Source: Patescibacteria group bacterium (GTDB taxonomy: Bacteria; Patescibacteriota; Minisyncoccia; Phycocordibacterales; Phycocordibacteraceae). From it: a stretch of DNA of 64,000 nucleotides. Each line of letters starts with the position of its first letter. Within the stretch, counting starts at the first letter, position 1. Both the position numbers and the translations under genes were made by a program. The DNA is taken from positions 62,674 through 126,673 of the forward strand of contig JAHJYC010000004.1 of assembly GCA_018826905.1 (NCBI GenBank), given 5' to 3'. Positions 9,574 through 16,401 of the stretch are shown here, piece by piece. The notes below the pieces were generated by a model. That model had not been told where the DNA came from, ran no database searches, and saw nothing but the letters and a program-made list of their open reading frames with translations.

Positions 9574-9623
9574 GCCGTCTCCTTTCTCTAACTAGAGAAC
9601 CATTTAGGAGACGGCTTTTTTAT
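9574..9623 (+). terminator. Rho-independent terminator (GCCGTCTCC...GGAGACGGC plus TTTTTT)
   Basis: Long inverted repeat followed by T-run after the 9338-9568 gene. Confidence 0.7.
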
Positions 9624-9647
9624 TGCTAGCTGGGACGACGTGGGCCC
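9622..9647 (+). repeat. island repeat copy (shortened: TTGCTAGCTGGGACGACGTGGGCCC)
   Basis: Abuts the stop codon of the 9647-10294 gene. Confidence 0.55.
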
Positions 9648-10294
9648 TACTTCTTTCTGCCAACAAATCGCACGAGGTTTGAATTTCCAACGGCACGATC
9701 CTTGAAGGTCTCGCCGGACTCATCGAGAATCTCTGTCTCAAAGTCTTCTGTAAATCTTTTTAGGGAGTCTGCACTGAAATAGCGCTTCTTAATACCGTTC
9801 ACAACAAAGTAATCATCCTCTATGCGCTCACCATTTCCATACTCTGAATCATGTACCGAGTTAAGAAGGAGGGTTAGCACGCCGTTTCGCTTCAGTACAC
9901 GAGCAAACTCTTTCATGATCTGCTGTGTGGTCTCTGAAGAGAAGTAGTGTGCAGCAAGATGGCAATGCACAACATCAAATTCAGCATCCGGGAATGGTAG
10001 GGACTCCGCAAGATCAGCCTGGATAAAGGTCACACGATCCTTTAGTTCTGCAGAAGTCTTTTCAATGGCTCTCGCGATACCTTCTGAGGCAAAATCTATT
10101 CCTATAACTTCGTAGCCCTTACTAGCGAAAAATCGGGAGTCTTGTCCTTGTCCGCAGCCGGCATCAAGTACCTTTCCCTCACTCGGAAAGTATTCCAACA
10201 CTGACTCTGCAAACATGGTCGGCTTGTGGATCCACTCTGCATCAGAGTACTTCTCGTGCGCTCCTTCCCAATACTGTCTTGGTTCTCTTTCCAT
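9647..10294 (-). CDS. class I SAM-dependent methyltransferase
   Basis: VLDAGCGQGQD motif I; acidic motif II (VIGIDFA). Confidence 0.8.
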   Translation of the reverse strand: MEREPRQYWEGAHEKYSDAEWIHKPTMFAESVLEYFPSEGKVLDAGCGQGQDSRFFASKGYEVIGIDFASEGIARAIEKTSAELKDRVTFIQADLAESLPFPDAEFDVVHCHLAAHYFSSETTQQIMKEFARVLKRNGVLTLLLNSVHDSEYGNGERIEDDYFVVNGIKKRYFSADSLKRFTEDFETEILDESGETFKDRAVGNSNLVRFVGRKK

Positions 10295-10311
10295 ATAGGG
10301 ATATTACACTA

Positions 10312-10338
10312 GCCGGGGGTCTTGGACGGTGTTGGAAC
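10312..10338 (+). repeat. island repeat copy b
   Basis: GCCGGGGGTCTTGGACGGTGTTGGAAC. Confidence 0.75.
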
Positions 10339-10340
10339 TT

Positions 10341-10757
10341 TTATCCAGTTGAATCCGTTATGCGAACCATCCGGTCAATGAACCAGAACTTAAGGGTCAT
10401 AGCGAGGAGCCCAGCAAATATCATAATCAGAATCTCTTGCTGCCAACTGAAGTATAAGAAAGCTGCAAACGTTGGAACATTGAGAATATTGAGCAGGGTC
10501 GGTAGATCTTTCTTAAGCTTCTTCCCGTCTTTGTAGTAGAGTTGCTCACCAAGCACACCTTTGCTCATCCAGTTATCTACACTTATGGGCTTTGGAAATA
10601 GCATCGGATTGACGATGAGCCAAATGATGGTTGCTCCAAGAATCCAGAAACTATGAAAATAGAGTCCAACCGCAAGCGCAGGCATAGACAGCGCGCGCGT
10701 CCATCCACTCCACGGATTCGCGTGCCGTTCCCATGTACGCTCTGAAAGAATCGCCAT
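10341..10757 (-). CDS. integral membrane hypothetical protein
   Basis: Multiple TM helices; no known motif. Confidence 0.5.
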   Translation of the reverse strand: MAILSERTWERHANPWSGWTRALSMPALAVGLYFHSFWILGATIIWLIVNPMLFPKPISVDNWMSKGVLGEQLYYKDGKKLKKDLPTLLNILNVPTFAAFLYFSWQQEILIMIFAGLLAMTLKFWFIDRMVRITDSTG

Positions 10758-10790
10758 AGATCTTATTTTAACAGGCAGAGGCCATAAAAT

Positions 10791-10817
10791 TGCCGGAAGG
10801 TGGGGCGATGTTGGGGC
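10791..10817 (+). repeat. island repeat copy i (degenerate)
   Basis: TGCCGGAAGGTGGGGCGATGTTGGGGC. Confidence 0.65.
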
Positions 10818-10824
10818 AAATTAA

Positions 10825-11517
10825 CTAAATCTTAGTACCTCCAATAACTATAAAGATTGGATCTCTTAACTCTTCTAACTTAGCTCCCATGTACTTGATT
10901 AAGCTCACATGAAGTCCTGCATCCTGAAGCGCGGATCGTATTTCTTCAAGCGAATGCTGATACATTATGTTTTTTGAAAGAGAGTTTACAGGTATGTTTA
11001 CTTTCCCAACTAATTTTTTGCCTTCCTTTTGAGGATTTTCATAAAACGACTCCCATGTTTCGTATGCGCTGGGATTTGCTGAAACAATAAGAAACTTTCC
11101 TTGTGGCTTTAATATGCGACTCATCTCTTCAGAAGATCTTTTAAGATTCTCTAGATGAAAAAGTACGTTTATTGAAAAGACTGCTTCAGCAGATTCATCA
11201 TCTAGTGGTACATCGTATGCGTCACCAACTATAAATAGTCGGTTTGGGGCAGAATATTTCTCTTTCGCTCTTTCAACAAGAATTTGTGACGGTTCTATTC
11301 CAATATACTTTGCATTTGACTCAAGCTTTTCTGCGCATATTCCTTGTCCTGCTCCTATCTCAACGACGGTATTTGATACTTGCAAAGAGGACGCCCAGAT
11401 CTTTAAGTACGGGTAGACTTCCCTGTCCCTAGTTCTCCCCTTTTCATTTTCTACGCTACTTATCCACTCATTAGCAACTTGAGCGTTGGTAAAGGGATTT
11501 TCTTCTTGGTGCTGCAT
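10825..11517 (-). CDS. class I SAM-dependent methyltransferase
   Basis: VVEIGAGQGICAEKL motif I; paralogous fold to the 9647 gene. Confidence 0.75.
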   Translation of the reverse strand: MQHQEENPFTNAQVANEWISSVENEKGRTRDREVYPYLKIWASSLQVSNTVVEIGAGQGICAEKLESNAKYIGIEPSQILVERAKEKYSAPNRLFIVGDAYDVPLDDESAEAVFSINVLFHLENLKRSSEEMSRILKPQGKFLIVSANPSAYETWESFYENPQKEGKKLVGKVNIPVNSLSKNIMYQHSLEEIRSALQDAGLHVSLIKYMGAKLEELRDPIFIVIGGTKI

Positions 11518-11544
11518 ATTTGCTGAATCTTAGCACTACTATTG

Positions 11545-11571
11545 GCTGGCGGTCTGGGACGATCTTGGAAA
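11545..11571 (+). repeat. island repeat copy c
   Basis: GGCTGGCGGTCTGGGACGATCTTGGAAA. Confidence 0.75.
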
Positions 11572-11579
11572 TTACTTAA

Positions 11580-12125
11580 CTACGCTAGTTTATATTCCCA
11601 ACCCGGTTTCCAAGATTTAGTTTTGCGCCAGTCATTCGCGAGAGCTTCGTCCCAAGTCATTCCCTTGATGATGACGTCTAGTGCAAGCTGAGGTGCCTTA
11701 TGGCCCACTAGTGCTACATGTTTGTCATCGTAATTGTCTTTAAGAAATTCAAGAAAATCAGCGACACGGTTCTTAACATCCTCATAACTCTCGCCACCAG
11801 GAAATTGCTTGAAATGCATTTCATTCTCTTGCAGTGGTTCTACTATTTCAGATGCTTCTCCGTTCAGCTCTCCATAGTTGCATTCACGAAGACGTGCATC
11901 AGGAATAATTTCGTACATGCCGCCCCATGCAAGTTCTGCAGACACTCGGGCGCGTTGTAAGTCAGAACAAAATACTACGTCAAAATGCATATCCTTGGTT
12001 TGCTCTTTAAGAGCTTTTGCTTGCTGAATGCCTAACTCTGAGAGAGTAGCATCAGACCAGCCTGAAGAAATCTCATTCTGATTGTCTACGGTTGTTCCGT
12101 GGACAAAGTAAGTGATCTTGATCAT
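11580..12125 (-). CDS. histidine phosphatase family protein (phosphoglycerate-mutase-like)
   Basis: N-terminal catalytic HG motif (FVHGTT) and family fold. Confidence 0.65.
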   Translation of the reverse strand: MIKITYFVHGTTVDNQNEISSGWSDATLSELGIQQAKALKEQTKDMHFDVVFCSDLQRARVSAELAWGGMYEIIPDARLRECNYGELNGEASEIVEPLQENEMHFKQFPGGESYEDVKNRVADFLEFLKDNYDDKHVALVGHKAPQLALDVIIKGMTWDEALANDWRKTKSWKPGWEYKLA

Positions 12126-12149
12126 AGAGAAAATCTAGCATGAATTTTA

Positions 12150-12180
12150 CGTGCAGGGAGTACGAAACTATGTTGGAAGC
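12150..12180 (+). repeat. island repeat copy d (degenerate)
   Basis: CGTGCAGGGAGTACGAAACTATGTTGGAAGC; overlaps the stop of the 12180 gene. Confidence 0.65.
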
Positions 12181-12608
12181 TATTTCCGTAGAACTTCTTG
12201 AATCCTTAGCGCAACCTCATCAAACCTGTCTTTGTCGTCTAGTCGCTCCCGGATCTCAGGAAGAGTAAGCCAATGTCCTCCTTTACCCTCTCGAACATCG
12301 AATTCTTTGCGATCAGTTTGATATAGGTACATATAGCGGATGATTTTCTTCCCGTCCCAATCAGTTTCGGATATGCCTAAATATTGAAGATCATTTTCAC
12401 TGATTTCAATAGTGAGCTCTTCGCAACTTTCACGGATTACTGTTTCAACAGGAGTCTCATCCTTCTCCATTCCGCCTCCAAAATATCCCCAATCTGGTTT
12501 CTTATGACCGCGCCTATCTTGAATATAAATTTTCCCTTCTGGGTTAAGGGGAAGAATCAGAGCTTTGTGAGCATCGAATGGACCTCCTATCTCCTTACCT
12601 ATATGCAT
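12180..12608 (-). CDS. NUDIX hydrolase
   Basis: Nudix box GGGMEKDETPVETVIRESCEELTIE. Confidence 0.8.
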   Translation of the reverse strand: MHIGKEIGGPFDAHKALILPLNPEGKIYIQDRRGHKKPDWGYFGGGMEKDETPVETVIRESCEELTIEISENDLQYLGISETDWDGKKIIRYMYLYQTDRKEFDVREGKGGHWLTLPEIRERLDDKDRFDEVALRIQEVLRK

Positions 12609-12630
12609 GAAGGAATTGTATCAAACATTG

Positions 12631-12657
12631 TTGGCAGCCTGAGACAATGATGGAACC
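12631..12657 (+). repeat. island repeat copy e (degenerate)
   Basis: TTGGCAGCCTGAGACAATGATGGAACC. Confidence 0.65.
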
Positions 12658-12676
12658 TATCTAAGAGAAAACTTTG

Positions 12677-12705
12677 TTTGACAAATTGCTTGTTTCAGGT
12701 TTAAT
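12677..12705 (+). promoter_or_regulatory. sigma70 promoter TTGACA-N17-TTAATA for the zinc-ribbon gene
   Basis: Perfect -35 hexamer with 17-nt spacer upstream of the GGAGG SD. Confidence 0.5.
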
Positions 12706-12758
12706 ATGTTGTACTTCCTTAAGCAACGGAGGGTTGGGAGGAACAGTGCCGAAGATTT

Positions 12759-12973
12759 ATCTGCTCATTCTGGGAATCTGTGCTGTCGGGTTTGCCGTCT
12801 GGTATGTGAAAGGACGGCACCACCACCAGTGCGACGAATGTGGACATCAGTGGAAACATGGTCCCATCTTCGCTGGCAACAAAGGGGCCCATACGTGCAA
12901 GCGTTGCGGCGAAGTGCAATGGTGGGGCTCCTACCTCTCTATCCTCGGACGCTTGGGCTTGCGAGAGAGGTAG
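12759..12973 (+). CDS. small membrane-anchored zinc-ribbon protein
   Basis: GGAGG SD then GTG; one TM helix followed by CDEC...CKRC motif; hairpin terminator. Start chosen over the track's TTG at 12674. Confidence 0.45.
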
Positions 12974-12998
12974 TCATACCTGCCTTACAGATTTAACT

Positions 12999-13032
12999 CC
13001 GCATGCGAAGCTTTCGCATGCGGTTTTCTTTT
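12999..13032 (+). terminator. Rho-independent terminator (11-bp perfect stem CCGCATGCGAA/TTCGCATGCGG plus T-run)
   Basis: Perfect inverted repeat followed by TTTTCTTTT. Confidence 0.75.
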
Positions 13033-13038
13033 ATACTG

Positions 13039-13069
13039 ATTGCTGGCCGTATGAGACGATGCTGGAACT
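13039..13069 (+). repeat. island repeat copy h
   Basis: TTGCTGGCCGTATGAGACGATGCTGGAACT; abuts the stop of the 13071 gene. Confidence 0.7.
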
Positions 13070-13070
13070 A

Positions 13071-13583
13071 TTACGAATTCATATATTCTTCAAGGAAAGT
13101 TATCTCGCGCTTCAGGATAAAATTCCCCTCGTACTTCTTTGGCTCATCCGTCTTCATTTTCGCTAACACTTCTCCCGGAGTAATCCATAGAGTAGTCTGT
13201 CCTTCCTCAATTTCACCTTCCTCTAGCTTTGGTGTTCCGATAGCACCGACTACTTGAGCTACGAAGCAGAAAGAGATATGTAACAGACTCAACTTGTTTC
13301 TGTATTCAATACACATGCCGAGCGGGTTTAGGATCTTAGAATCACACCCTACTTCTTCAAGAATCTCTCGCTTCAAGGCTTCTTCCAAAGACTCACCTGG
13401 ATCTACTCCTCCTCCCGGAAGCTTGTGGTAAGTATAGTTTTGAAGATACTGAGTTGCCATTCTTCCCTCGGAGTCTAGAAGAATCGCACGTGCACTTTTG
13501 CGCAGCGTGTAGGCACTATTCAATTGTTCGAATTGGTCACTTAGACCTAATGACCCATCACTGATTTCGGTAAGAAGTCTCAT
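13071..13583 (-). CDS. NUDIX hydrolase
   Basis: Nudix box GGGVDPGESLEEALKREILEEVGC. Confidence 0.8.
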   Translation of the reverse strand: MRLLTEISDGSLGLSDQFEQLNSAYTLRKSARAILLDSEGRMATQYLQNYTYHKLPGGGVDPGESLEEALKREILEEVGCDSKILNPLGMCIEYRNKLSLLHISFCFVAQVVGAIGTPKLEEGEIEEGQTTLWITPGEVLAKMKTDEPKKYEGNFILKREITFLEEYMNS

Positions 13584-13604
13584 ATCTCAATATGGTATCA
13601 AACA

Positions 13605-13634
13605 TTGCTGGGAGTGTGGGACGATGTTGGAACC
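13605..13634 (+). repeat. island repeat copy f (near-consensus)
   Basis: TTGCTGGGAGTGTGGGACGATGTTGGAACC. Confidence 0.85.
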
Positions 13635-13680
13635 CTTATAGCGGCGTGCTAGTGTGCGCTCAGGGAAGGAGGAGTTCCTC

Positions 13681-13989
13681 ATGATACTTGTTGAAGACGC
13701 TACCGGAAGAAGGTCGCTGCGGTACGGCCCGTATGAGCGCGTCTTGAAGACGGCAGGCTACCATGCTCTGGCTGTATTCATTGTCATTGCTGGCTTCCTT
13801 GTAACCTTCGCCATGATGGCCTCAGCGCCAGCACTGAAGTCCGCTGCAGGCTTAATTGCTTTTGCCATCCTCGCCGCAGCGTCCAGACCCTATATCTTGG
13901 CTTGCGAGGTCTGGAGGTACAACGAGGCTGAAGATGATGTCGCCCTGTTCCGGAAAACCGGCAACGCTATGCCGCTCTTCCTCAAATAG
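13681..13989 (+). CDS. small integral membrane protein
   Basis: GGAAGGAGGAG SD then ATG (MILVED...); two TM helices. Confidence 0.5.
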   Translation: MILVEDATGRRSLRYGPYERVLKTAGYHALAVFIVIAGFLVTFAMMASAPALKSAAGLIAFAILAAASRPYILACEVWRYNEAEDDVALFRKTGNAMPLFLK

Positions 13990-14053
13990 ACGCGAAGAGC
14001 GGACGAGCACCACGACCCGACACGAAAGTGCTGGGTCTTTTTCTTTGGGTTAT

Positions 14054-14081
14054 TTGCTGGTTCTCTAGACGATGCTGGAAC
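14054..14081 (+). repeat. island repeat copy j
   Basis: TTGCTGGTTCTCTAGACGATGCTGGAAC; in tandem with copy k with no gene between. Confidence 0.7.
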
Positions 14082-14105
14082 GCTTACAACCATCTCTTAT
14101 CCTGT

Positions 14106-14135
14106 TAGCTGGCAGTCTGGGACGATGTTGGAACC
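14106..14135 (+). repeat. island repeat copy k (near-consensus)
   Basis: TAGCTGGCAGTCTGGGACGATGTTGGAACC; abuts the stop of the 14139 gene. Confidence 0.85.
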
Positions 14136-14138
14136 TTC

Positions 14139-14468
14139 CTAGAAAAGCAAACCCAAAAGTTCGTAGAAGGTCAGTCCGAGCACTGCACTAACGCCCATGA
14201 GCATTAAGAGCAATAACATTCCTATAATTGGAAGTAGACGGAATGCGAATCCGAACCAAAAGTCTATTGGTTCATGTTTTCTGCTTACATACTTCGGCAT
14301 TCCCGTTGAGTACCAAAAGGATCTAGTCAAAGATTGAAAGAATGGAAAACGAGCAGCTCCCATTATTCTTCCTTCTCTTATATGACCGTATATAAGAGCT
14401 CCAGAAAGTAGTAGAGGTACTGCGACAATTATTACTATAAGAAGTATAGATTGCAGAGGAATATCCAT
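14139..14468 (-). CDS. small integral membrane hypothetical protein
   Basis: Three TM helices; leaderless (TAGATT 6 nt upstream of ATG). Confidence 0.5.
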   Translation of the reverse strand: MDIPLQSILLIVIIVAVPLLLSGALIYGHIREGRIMGAARFPFFQSLTRSFWYSTGMPKYVSRKHEPIDFWFGFAFRLLPIIGMLLLLMLMGVSAVLGLTFYELLGLLF

Positions 14469-14491
14469 ATCATGAATCTAGCACAGAAGTG

Positions 14492-14521
14492 TTGCTGGGT
14501 ATCTGGGACGATGTTGGAACC
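14492..14521 (+). repeat. island repeat copy g (consensus)
   Basis: TTGCTGGGTATCTGGGACGATGTTGGAACC; overlaps the stop of the 14521 gene. Confidence 0.85.
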
Positions 14522-14855
14522 TACGTCTTAGAACTATCTAGCGATAAGTCTTCTGAATCCAAGTTTGCTCTGGCTTCTGCTTGGGTTAGATAGTCCAGAA
14601 TTTCTAACTGAGATGCCTTTCCGGCTATTTCTCCTCCTTCTTTTCTATCAACAAAGCGACCGGTATCTGTTACAAATCCATCTTCTATTGGTTCTTTCGA
14701 CTCAAGCCAGTCTGGATGATCCTTCTCCATTTCAGCAACAGCATCCACATGCCCCACACCGGTGTACCTCTGGCCACGAAAAATAATAGCTGAGGCTACA
14801 ACTTTCTCTGGAGGTCTATTTCCAGACTCGGTAGTTAGTTTTTCCATTCTGGAAA
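14521..14855 (-). CDS. hypothetical protein (start moved to MEK... because the track's N-terminus is encoded by the repeat)
   Basis: TATACT -10 box 7 nt upstream of the internal ATG; the upstream part of the track ORF is the translated repeat copy. Confidence 0.45.
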
Positions 14856-14876
14856 GTATACCTGATTGGTTTGGCT

Positions 14877-14905
14877 GGGGGTGGGACGATGTTGGAGCCA
14901 CTATG
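14877..14905 (+). repeat. island repeat copy g'
   Basis: TTGGCTGGGGGTGGGACGATGTTGGAGCC. Confidence 0.8.
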
Positions 14906-14967
14906 CCTTGCGATTTAAGTAACTATATTGCATAGTGTTCCTGACATTGAACCTTTGGGAGTGTGCT

Positions 14968-15186
14968 ATGGAGTACCGTCCTCTTACGGAAGAAGAGATC
15001 GGCCGGAGCGAAAACGATTTTCTCATCGATGCCTTTCTGCTGGCAAAACGCCATTTCGACGTCCTCGGCGTATCGAGGGCGGATGCAGAGGATGCTGAGC
15101 GACAGTCGTTACTGATTCGCAAGGAGATACTGAAGCGTATGGCGGCCAGCCGCCGAGAGTGGGAAGGCGCCTTTGATACCGGGTGA
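14968..15186 (+). CDS. small hypothetical protein
   Basis: GGGAG SD-like then ATG (MEYRPLTEEE...). Confidence 0.4.
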   Translation: MEYRPLTEEEIGRSENDFLIDAFLLAKRHFDVLGVSRADAEDAERQSLLIRKEILKRMAASRREWEGAFDTG

Positions 15187-15291
15187 GTATTAAGGGGATC
15201 CCGAAAACGCTAGAGTGAACCCTGAGCTGACAACTAATACTAAGAGCGAACATTGCTTGGCGCGGATTAAGACATCCGCGCTTTTATTTGC

Positions 15292-15360
15292 TGGGAGACT
15301 AGGGATCGAACCTAGATTCACGGCTTCAAAGGCCGCTGTCCTACCATTAGACGATCTCCC
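15292..15360 (-). tRNA. tRNA-Gln (anticodon UUG)
   Basis: Minus-strand cloverleaf, T-loop GGTTCGATCC, anticodon loop CUUUGAA; CCA not encoded. Confidence 0.7.
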
Positions 15361-15366
15361 AATTCC

Positions 15367-16401
15367 CTAATCCTGCCTGGAAATGGCGAGCACTGCAAGT
15401 TCTAGCGGCAGTGCTGGAACTGGGGAAAACCGGATACGTGCTGCCGCGTCAAGAAATACAGCAAGTGTGCTGTGCGTAAGAAAAGAATCTTTAGCGTCTG
15501 AAATAGCTTTTGCCTCTTTATACGCGTCTTCACCTAGTTCACTTTGTATCTCTTTTTGTAGATCTGGAGCGTGTCGTATGAGAAGAATCTGGCGTGTATA
15601 TTCAAGCACGAGCATGAGGTACAACTGCATATCTATGTTCCCTTCTTCAGCTGTATGGATTGTTAAGAGAGCCTTCCCTGTATCCCCAAACGAGAGCGCC
15701 TCTACAAGACCATGCACAAGCGCATGGCGCGGAGCGCCTGTTGCTTGTTCCGTTTGCTCGCGAGAAAGCGTCTTTCCGTCTCCCACAGAAAGTGCCTTTT
15801 CTAGAACAGAAAGTGCATCACGGTATGATCCGTCTCCAAGGAGGGCTATAAGCTCAGCAGCAGCGGGCTCAATAGTAACTCCTTCCTTCTTAGAAACATC
15901 CTGCACAAGCTTAGCAAGGCCCTGACGAGTAGGCTTCTTAAATACAAACACCTGGCAACGGGAACGAACAGTCTCTGGCACTTTATCAAGCTCAGTGGTA
16001 GCAAGGACAATAATGACGTGTTGCGGAGGCTCTTCAAGCGTCTTCAAAAGTGCATTCCACGCACCCTTAGAAAGCATGTGTGCCTCGTCCAAAATGTACA
16101 TCTTGTACTCTGAAGCAAACGGCAATGTGTAGATGCTGTCATTCAGATTACGCATCTCATCAACTCCATTATTGGAAGCAGCATCAAGCTCATACACATC
16201 TCGCTCATGAATCTTAAGTTCAGAGGCAAAGATACGTGCAATTGAGGTCTTTCCAAGACCACGAGAGCCTGCAAACAAATAGGCGTGCCCTATCTTTTTG
16301 TTCTCAAGCTGAGACTGAAGCGGTGTAACTACTTCCTCTTGTCCCACAATCTCTTTAAAGGTGTGTGGGCGGTACGCTCTGTATAGCGACTGGTGTCTCA
16401 T
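15367..16401 (-). CDS. dnaX: DNA polymerase III subunit gamma/tau (short form)
   Basis: AAA+ clamp-loader motifs (YRPHTFKEIVGQE, LFAGSRGLGKTS, SRC-like box); start at internal Met MRHQSLY. Confidence 0.85.
   Translation of the reverse strand: MRHQSLYRAYRPHTFKEIVGQEEVVTPLQSQLENKKIGHAYLFAGSRGLGKTSIARIFASELKIHERDVYELDAASNNGVDEMRNLNDSIYTLPFASEYKMYILDEAHMLSKGAWNALLKTLEEPPQHVIIVLATTELDKVPETVRSRCQVFVFKKPTRQGLAKLVQDVSKKEGVTIEPAAAELIALLGDGSYRDALSVLEKALSVGDGKTLSREQTEQATGAPRHALVHGLVEALSFGDTGKALLTIHTAEEGNIDMQLYLMLVLEYTRQILLIRHAPDLQKEIQSELGEDAYKEAKAISDAKDSFLTHSTLAVFLDAAARIRFSPVPALPLELAVLAISRQD

Follow-up and report, generated by a model that had tools for sequence, protein, structure and literature searches.

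A candidate integron-like system in Patescibacteria: arrays of mostly single-gene cassettes anchored at the 3' end of tRNA-Gln

Integrative mobile elements exploiting Xer (IMEX) and the pdif modules of Acinetobacter plasmids are small modules with short recombinase sites that depend on a housekeeping recombinase encoded elsewhere. In the hyperplastic regions of T4-type phages, the short, conserved intergenic repeats of promoter early stem-loop (PeSL) cassettes, each an early promoter with a stem-loop, flank small accessory genes for which modular shuffling has been proposed. The tycheposons of Prochlorococcus span several kb, carry their own integrase and often replication genes, and have true partial tRNA copies between them (bioRxiv 10.1101/2020.12.28.424599). 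The genomes of Patescibacteria are tiny and contain few mobile elements that can be recognised as such, and how accessory genes are acquired in the group is consequently an open question. Here we describe, in 64,000 nucleotides (nt) of a Patescibacteria genome (the window: assembly GCA_018826905.1, contig JAHJYC010000004.1), an array of mostly single-gene cassettes that starts at the 3' end of a tRNA-Gln gene and is divided by direct copies of a ~33-nt motif. Arrays of this anatomy are conserved across the phylum and anchored at tRNA-Gln, and their cassettes turn over and relocate. We infer that the array is probably integron-like, with the boundary motif acting as an attachment site for a sequence-specific recombinase supplied in trans.

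Read on the minus strand, the motif is AAAGGTTCCAACATCGTCCCAGACTGCCAGCAAT. A search with its 16-nt core, GGGACGATGTTGGAAC, allowing up to three mismatches, returned 12 matches in the 64-kb window, all on the plus strand between 8986 and 14898, against 0.39 expected from shuffled sequence (0 of 100 shuffles attained 12). A position-weight scan added a degenerate copy (12149-12184) and a shortened one (9617-9652), giving 14 copies that lie on one strand throughout and are confined to 8971-14903, with perfect and decayed copies side by side. The motif has three parts on the minus strand, namely an invariant box GGTTCCAACATCGTCC, ~7 variable bases, and an invariant CCAGC(A/C)A; in a consensus of 167 copies the first box and CCAGC are invariant and the ~7 bases between them free. 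No hairpin was found on either strand (minimum free energy of the consensus and of the perfect copy k, 0 to -2 kcal/mol), and with fold z-scores of +0.9 to +1.3 both strands are less structured than shuffled sequence. An attC-like fold or a terminator was accordingly rejected. A known RNA family was also rejected, an Rfam search of 7500-15600 with E up to 5 having matched two tRNAs only and placed the motif in no family. The consensus, by reading only, fits a sigma-54 or extracytoplasmic function (ECF)-type promoter on neither strand, and spacing is too variable for the motif to be the -35 element of the -10 boxes downstream. Repetitive extragenic palindromes, bacterial interspersed mosaic elements and miniature inverted-repeat transposable elements (REP/BIME/MITE) were discarded, the motif being unstructured and limited to one 6-kb stretch of the window.

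Once the extra copy at 12149-12184 is counted, motif copies bound all genes in 8971-15290, whichever strand they lie on. The minus-strand tRNA-Gln gene (15361 to 15290) stands at the head of the array, which starts at its 3' end and closes with an eroded copy at 8971-9006, before a conserved gene of 249 amino acids (aa). Nine minus-strand genes begin shortly 3' of a motif copy; the four plus-strand genes (starting at 9335, 12674, 13654 and 14935) have their own start signals and a hairpin with a T-run that faces the next motif copy.

An exact-pattern scan for the motif, run over one genome per GTDB species, matched at least 120 stretches; loci are given L numbers in the comparisons below. Among the matches listed, ~108 came from ~70 Patescibacteria assemblies of many named lineages, and 12 were single matches in other phyla that look like chance. 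A matrix scan of these loci yielded 372 copies, in one orientation per locus and at a median spacing of 552 nt; some genomes hold more than one array. The intervals are coding and mostly 200-1500 nt long, which disposed of a clustered regularly interspaced short palindromic repeat (CRISPR) array, where direct repeats of 28-37 nt alternate with short spacers of uniform length. In 2.9 million viral contigs only three motif matches occurred, all of them chance matches inside GC-rich coding DNA, and a phage-borne attP was likewise dismissed. Two observations were made alongside these scans. Motif-bounded units of 170-210 nt without an open reading frame (ORF), some with hairpins (L092 255-429, L013 6063-6245, L005 5262-5445 and L057 2054-2261), may be non-coding cassettes or small RNA genes. 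A coding repeat core of NIVWG type (...AACATCGTCTGGGG...) in a repetitive protein gene of other phyla (L038, Vicinamibacteria; L138) mimics the left half of the motif and is a source of false matches in motif scans.

Among the loci with both a tRNA and a strong motif copy, the tRNA was tRNA-Gln in 22 of 35, upstream and co-oriented in ~19. Arrays that follow other tRNAs (tRNA-Pro in L010 and L073, tRNA-Met in L016) start with an orphan tRNA-Gln 3' end of ~28 nt, and an orphan tRNA-Gln 3' fragment also heads the array beside xer in L127. The motif itself resembles the last ~29 nt of the window tRNA-Gln, which gave the best alignment among the ten tRNAs of the window and a score equalled by 3 of 5000 shuffles. 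In this alignment motif AGGTTCCAACATCGTCCCAGACTGCCAGCAA stands opposite tRNA-Gln AGGTTC---GATC--CCTAGTCTCCCAGCAA, with 24 of 29 aligned positions matching and a 5-nt insertion. The motif end variants CCAGCAA and CCAGCCAA parallel tRNA-Gln genes without and with an encoded CCA, respectively. The first cassette sets in immediately after the tRNA end, as later cassettes do after the motif. L006 (~6280-6600) and L042 (~7040-7200) hold a full tRNA-Gln, a conserved linker of ~26 nt (CAGCACATTTCACTC...) and a partial tRNA-Gln copy, and in L048 (~2400-2650) a full tRNA-Gln precedes a 160-nt insert, beyond which lies an orphan tRNA end of 22 nt; these arrangements look like footprints of a second, classical type of tRNA-Gln insertion.

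Both flanks of the window array are present in two relatives, UBA6241 (L052 plus L084) and JAHJZL01 (L005), with 77-79% DNA identity over the tRNA-Gln and dnaX flank and 83-88% protein identity for the 249-aa distal gene. The number of motif copies is 14 in the window, 15 in UBA6241 and 6 in JAHJZL01. The window cassettes found in common were a histidine phosphatase (92% identity, UBA6241) and a zinc-ribbon protein (46% over partial length, L005), at most one well-conserved common cassette for each pair of the three genomes; over 219 cassettes, only 15 cross-locus homologous pairs were found. Cassette 14139-14468 recurs in JAUPKX01 (L019) at another chromosomal site, in the interval from a tyrosine recombinase stop codon to a gene of an exonuclease family, with a motif copy on each side. 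In close relatives of L019 the same gap is empty or holds other genes, and in L127 its content is another cassette together with an orphan 3' fragment of tRNA-Gln and, abutting the recombinase stop codon, a motif copy. In the few readable pairs, similarity continues through the motif 3' of the cassette and breaks in its last bases: homology between k, the copy that follows 14139-14468, and its L019 counterpart breaks after ...GACTGCCA, and the two genomes differ in the motif copy ahead of the cassette. Because similarity includes the following motif while the preceding motif differs, the motif was assigned to the downstream end of each unit. The repeats mark units of gene gain and loss, and to this extent the original prediction, which had proposed gene gain and loss at the repeats, was borne out by the turnover among relatives and the relocation to L019. 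The gap between recombinase and exonuclease genes is, in its own right, a second variable spot in the genus, holding 0-3 different small genes, with the motif in two genomes only.

The mechanism that we favour would pair the motif with the tRNA-Gln 3' end as attachment sites of a recombinase encoded elsewhere in the genome; this pairing is proposed because the motif resembles the tRNA-Gln end and the first cassette starts after the tRNA as the others do after the motif. Invariant boxes around a variable spacer fit recognition by a protein. Cassette insertion and excision would both be its work, at a joint within the final few bases of the motif, between CCA and GCAA. The motif closes the downstream end of each unit, and the hypervariable array of mostly single-gene cassettes is appended to the tRNA-Gln 3' end. 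The sole candidate enzyme is the L019 protein, a tyrosine recombinase of XerA type (NF040815, 243.6 bits against a cut-off of 220) that falls below the integron-integrase cut-offs (TIGR02249, 126.7 against 265; NF011946, 82.5 against 435). Recombinases of this type are strongly conserved in Patescibacteria relatives, and the XerA-type enzyme is possibly the one that acts on the motif.

Several observations weigh against this mechanism. The XerA-type gene adjoins motif copies, its stop codon abutting them, in two of eight genomes examined (L019 and L127), and xer adjacency as a general rule was abandoned. A profile hidden Markov model of Xer homologues, applied to the ORFs of ~120 array loci and of the window, matched only L019 and the xer loci added deliberately, and tblastn with the L019 recombinase found no other homologue, the window included; both of these Xer-based searches could miss distant tyrosine recombinases. 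Direct reading of the consensus revealed no dyad symmetry, and an asymmetric, hairpin-free motif is unusual for the core site of a tyrosine or serine recombinase. The sites between cassettes are other than plain tRNA fragments, and the motif spacer covaries weakly with the tRNA end of the same genome (p about 0.04, relatedness uncontrolled). Joints were mappable in few cassette pairs only. A statistical test of which cassette, upstream or downstream, is accompanied by the motif's variable middle gave no signal over the 15 homologous pairs, which are too few. Neither a circular cassette nor a within-population insertion or deletion polymorphism was seen, the eight contigs of the population being identical at the tandem motif pair j/k discussed below.

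An alternative that we consider unlikely is that the motif is a portable homology anchor, cassettes being exchanged by natural transformation and RecA-type recombination with tRNA-Gln as the upstream anchor and no dedicated recombinase. Patescibacteria are thought to rely on DNA uptake, and the explanation agrees with arrays that have no adjoining integrase, with a neighbouring tRNA that is very conserved (74-76 nt at 97-100% identity in L006, L025 and L039), with motif copies that are all direct, and with the full motif copy on each side of the relocated L019 unit. However, 33 bp lies at the lower limit for efficient homologous recombination, and two invariant boxes around a free 7-nt spacer are the mark of contact with a protein rather than of a requirement for unbroken identity. 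Breaks in homology gather in the final bases of the motif, and orphan tRNA-Gln 3' fragments share its start boundary, which also argues against homology alone and leaves site-specific recombination as the reading we prefer.

Cassettes in the direction of the array typically show an extended -10 box, 6 nt and an ATG (for example TATAAT-GCTCTT-ATG 3' of 9256-9291), and a -10 box 6 nt before the start codon suggests leaderless mRNA. The pattern TAnnnT-N6-ATG lies within 60 nt downstream of 24% of motif copies, as opposed to 2.7% of controls, and TGnTAnnnT-N6-ATG follows 16% of copies, as opposed to 0.65% of controls; the distance from motif to -10 box varies from 1 to 43 nt. Across the phylum as in the window, copies have one of two downstream contexts, either -10 box, 6 nt and ATG or the reverse complement of a terminator. 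Reversed cassettes are equipped with a promoter, a Shine-Dalgarno sequence and a hairpin terminator of their own. Genes on the opposite strand make up about one third of cassettes across the phylum, and motif orientation is constant regardless of the gene. Judging from these signals, each cassette supplies its own means of expression. The original prediction that the repeat is not itself a promoter agrees with the downstream position of the -10 boxes and with a single motif orientation whatever the gene direction.

Beside these signals, a conserved module of ~31 nt, yCTrGACAGAAC.TA.CATAnnTTGCAkAAAGG, stands directly 5' of 29 of 307 motif copies (~9%), in L003, L006, L010, L013, L018, L037, L039, L040, L060, L082 and others, and has diverged at window 13634-13660. 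The module, preceded by a Shine-Dalgarno sequence and an ATG that are both reversed, reads as a common outward promoter and 5' leader for unrelated reversed cassette genes.

Expression signals bear on a further explanation, by which the motif would be a regulatory or insulating site (a repressor or silencer operator, or a protein-dependent terminator) and cassette turnover would proceed by unrelated means. The enrichment of TAnnnT-N6-ATG near the motif speaks for it, and the motif is strongly conserved and unstructured, as a binding site in duplex DNA would be. The explanation is nevertheless quite improbable: the -10 box stands anywhere from 1 to 43 nt away, about one third of copies precede an opposite-strand terminator instead of a promoter, and the orientation of the motif is independent of the gene. 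Anchoring at tRNA-Gln, likeness to the tRNA end, the orphan fragments and the joint movement of motif and cassette would all be left unexplained.

The original prediction centred on copies j (14054-14081, TTTGCTGGTTCTCTAGACGATGCTGGAAC) and k (14106-14135, TTAGCTGGCAGTCTGGGACGATGTTGGAACC), said to lie 24 nt apart with no ORF between them. The coordinates hold, and no ORF is contained within 14082-14105; a 67-codon minus-strand ORF (13890-14093), without a Pfam match and uncalled in the NCBI record, has its ATG in the spacer and traverses j, the terminator and the antisense strand of gene 13654-13989. Copy k is perfect, scoring 47 of 52 bits, and comparison with L019 assigns it to cassette 14139-14468. 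Copy j, directly 3' of a hairpin and T-run at 14014-14046, is the most decayed of all: it matches the core at 13 of 16 positions, has a 1-nt deletion and several substitutions, and scores at noise level with the ungapped full-length matrix. Copy h and the copy at 9622 do face terminators, as had been stated, h lying 3' of the plus-strand terminator 12999-13023 and 9622-9646 lying 3' of a hairpin and T-run at 9574-9621. The description of h and the 9622 copy as orphans had to be given up, since they, like j, show the ordinary arrangement before any reversed cassette.

In this population j/k is a fixed pair; elsewhere such pairs are rare. Among the species genomes a comparable empty tandem pair occurs in L113 only, the 'pairs' of L010 and L093 resting on a weak second match; a metagenome pattern scan for empty tandem pairs gave three matches, all unrelated, and no relatives of protein 13654-13989 were found in Joint Genome Institute (JGI) metagenomes. 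With low confidence, we read j and the 24 nt as a 53-bp empty unit of local making, which may be either what remains of a cassette after deletion of its body or an h-related copy that arose locally. The narrower explanation that j is a local derivative of h, made by gene conversion or by duplication of a short stretch, and was never the boundary of a cassette draws on two substitutions (the GTTCCAGCATCGTCT combination) present in h and j and in no other copy among 356 from Patescibacteria, and on the position of both copies just before the reversed terminator of an opposite-strand cassette. It is rather improbable, since the sequence of h and j outside the motif is no closer than that of other copy pairs and spacer differences and an indel separate the two motif bodies. 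For the same reason, that flank similarity is no outlier, we set aside a derivation of the 24-nt spacer from the end of a NUDIX-like paralogue of the cassette that precedes h. The remaining claim of the original prediction, that j/k is the scar of a gene deleted by recombination between its two flanking repeats, agrees with the cargo-free gap and with cassettes that are clearly gained and lost at repeats but is highly improbable: homologous or site-specific exchange fuses direct repeats into one hybrid and does not leave two 24 nt apart, j and k are the least alike of the good copies (j having two h-only substitutions and a deletion), and no gene-bearing variant was found in the population contigs, 8 of 8 of which are identical here, or in JGI metagenomes.

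Table 1. Features of the array in the window, from the tRNA-Gln gene to the distal flank; the last row lists the loci of the second variable spot.
Feature	Position	Strand	Remarks
tRNA-Gln(UUG), array head	15290-15361	-	ARAGORN; Rfam tRNA, 63.8 bits; 3' end ...GGTTCGATCCCTAGTCTCCCAGCAA, motif-like
First cassette, reversed gene, 83 aa	14935-15282	+	Terminator 15259-15282 abuts the tRNA end
Motif copy R14883, 1-nt deletion	14868-14903	-	Followed by TATACT, 7 nt, ATG of gene 14521-14850
Cassette gene, 109 aa	14521-14850	-	Precomputed Pfam match T4_Y16D
Motif copy R14505	14490-14525	-	Followed by TGCTAGATT, 6 nt, ATG
Cassette gene, 109-aa membrane protein	14139-14468	-	Same cassette with both flanking motif copies at another locus in L019
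Motif copy k, 3' site of cassette 14139-14468	14104-14139	-	Same as L019 copy through ...GACTGCCA, then diverges
Cargo-free 24-nt spacer between k and j	14082-14105	.	
Motif copy j, decayed (GTTCCAGCATCGTCT, 1-nt deletion)	14051-14086	-	Two rare substitutions in common with h
Reversed cassette, 111-aa membrane protein gene 13654-13989	13654-14046	+	Own Shine-Dalgarno sequence; terminator 14014-14046
Motif copy R13618, in divergent region	13603-13638	-	Core search, position-weight scan
Cassette gene, NUDIX, 170 aa	13071-13583	-	
Motif copy h	13038-13073	-	Core search, position-weight scan
Reversed cassette, zinc-ribbon membrane protein, 99 aa	12674-13023	+	Terminator 12999-13023; common to L005
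Motif copy R12641	12626-12661	-	Core search, position-weight scan
Cassette gene, NUDIX, 142 aa	12180-12608	-	
Degenerate motif copy, missed in the original prediction	12149-12184	-	Position-weight scan
Cassette gene, histidine phosphatase	11580-12125	-	Common to UBA6241, 92% aa identity
Motif copy R11556, CCAGCCAAT variant	11541-11576	-	Core search, position-weight scan
Cassette gene, S-adenosylmethionine (SAM) methyltransferase	10825-11517	-	
Degenerate motif copy R10802	10785-10820	-	Core search
Cassette gene, DUF6653	10341-10757	-	
Motif copy R10323	10308-10343	-	Core search, position-weight scan
Cassette gene, SAM methyltransferase	9647-10294	-	
Shortened motif copy	9617-9652	-	Position-weight scan
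Reversed cassette, 77 aa	9335-9621	+	Terminator 9574-9621
Motif copy R9271	9256-9291	-	Followed by TATAAT, 6 nt, ATG
Cassette gene, DUF1653	9001-9243	-	Homologous cassette 3' of a motif copy in L003
Last, eroded motif copy R8986	8971-9006	-	Core search, position-weight scan
Conserved distal flank gene, 249 aa, without family match	8161-8910	-	83-88% identical in two relatives with differing arrays
Recombinase/exonuclease gap loci	L019 4195-5142; L123, L124, L126, L127, L129, L130, L140, L142		

The window is identical to contig JAHJYZ010000001.1 of Patescibacteria assembly GCA_018826595.1. It encodes DnaX, Dus, SerRS, topoisomerase I (TopA), RelA/SpoT, ClpB, GyrA and a short IF2 besides its ten tRNAs; with these housekeeping genes present, and with phage DNA matching the tRNAs only, a phage origin was rejected. 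Just beyond the distal flank gene lies a tRNA (7948-8023, minus strand; Rfam tRNA, 58 bits) to which ARAGORN gives a four-base anticodon, 'atca', with the amino acid unassigned. Farther along, among small minus-strand genes beyond this odd tRNA, an eroded motif-like sequence (5404-5439, minus strand, score 15) and a 27-nt stretch (5434-5460) that resembles the start region of cassette 9647-10294 (repeat family D10) hint at an older, decayed array.

Full-text searches of the literature, whose coverage is incomplete, returned the motif sequence in no paper and no description of Patescibacteria cassette arrays, and the tRNA-Gln cassette array is apparently not yet described. It is conceivable, and we propose it tentatively, that the arrays form a gene-capture system throughout the candidate phyla radiation (CPR), in which self-expressed single-gene cassettes would be taken up where tRNA-Gln ends, and where copies of this 3' end lie elsewhere, through an unstructured ~33-bp site that mimics the tRNA end, by a recombinase encoded away from the array and possibly of XerA type, as a main route of accessory-gene flux. 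An exact, searchable boundary of 33 nt would provide a handle for cataloguing the flexible gene pool from metagenomes. The recombination system would be testable, with two short sites and few candidate enzymes, and it might serve genetic tools as a natural landing pad in organisms whose genetics is only starting.

In comparison with known systems, elements that exploit Xer share the bounded small modules, and a gene of Xer type is the only candidate enzyme here. Dif-like sites, however, are 28 bp long, with inverted arms of ~11 bp around a 6-8-bp spacer, a symmetry that the present motif does not have, and pdif modules have sites in alternating orientation, whereas all sites here are direct. 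PeSL repeats are phage-borne and combine a promoter with a stem-loop; the present motif is chromosomal and is neither promoter nor hairpin. Tycheposons and other tRNA islands also occur in streamlined genomes; their growth by successive insertions 3' of particular tRNA genes, with tRNA fragments at old joints, may have a parallel in arrays headed by tRNA-Gln or by its orphan 3' fragment. The units described here, however, measure 0.3-1.1 kb, have no detected integrase, and are parted by a distinct motif that is merely like a tRNA end. With integrons, and sedentary chromosomal integrons especially, the arrays have in common long series of mostly single-gene units with one-way terminal repeats, a minority of reversed genes with their own signals, very diverse cassettes mostly of unknown function, content that differs almost wholly between relatives sharing the flanks, and a fixed platform site at the array head. 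They differ in that intI, which encodes a tyrosine recombinase with an IntI-specific insertion, adjoins the integron, whereas none was found beside the arrays in the Xer-based searches; in that attC is conserved in hairpin structure and not in sequence, whereas the present motif is unstructured and sequence-conserved across a phylum; in that a tRNA gene, by its 3' end, provides the head site and one genome may hold several arrays; and in that integron cassettes are generally promoterless and served by a platform promoter, whereas those here carry their own. If the reading proposed here is true, integron-like capture would have evolved with another type of site, a hairpin-free one that goes back to a tRNA end and is recognised by its sequence.

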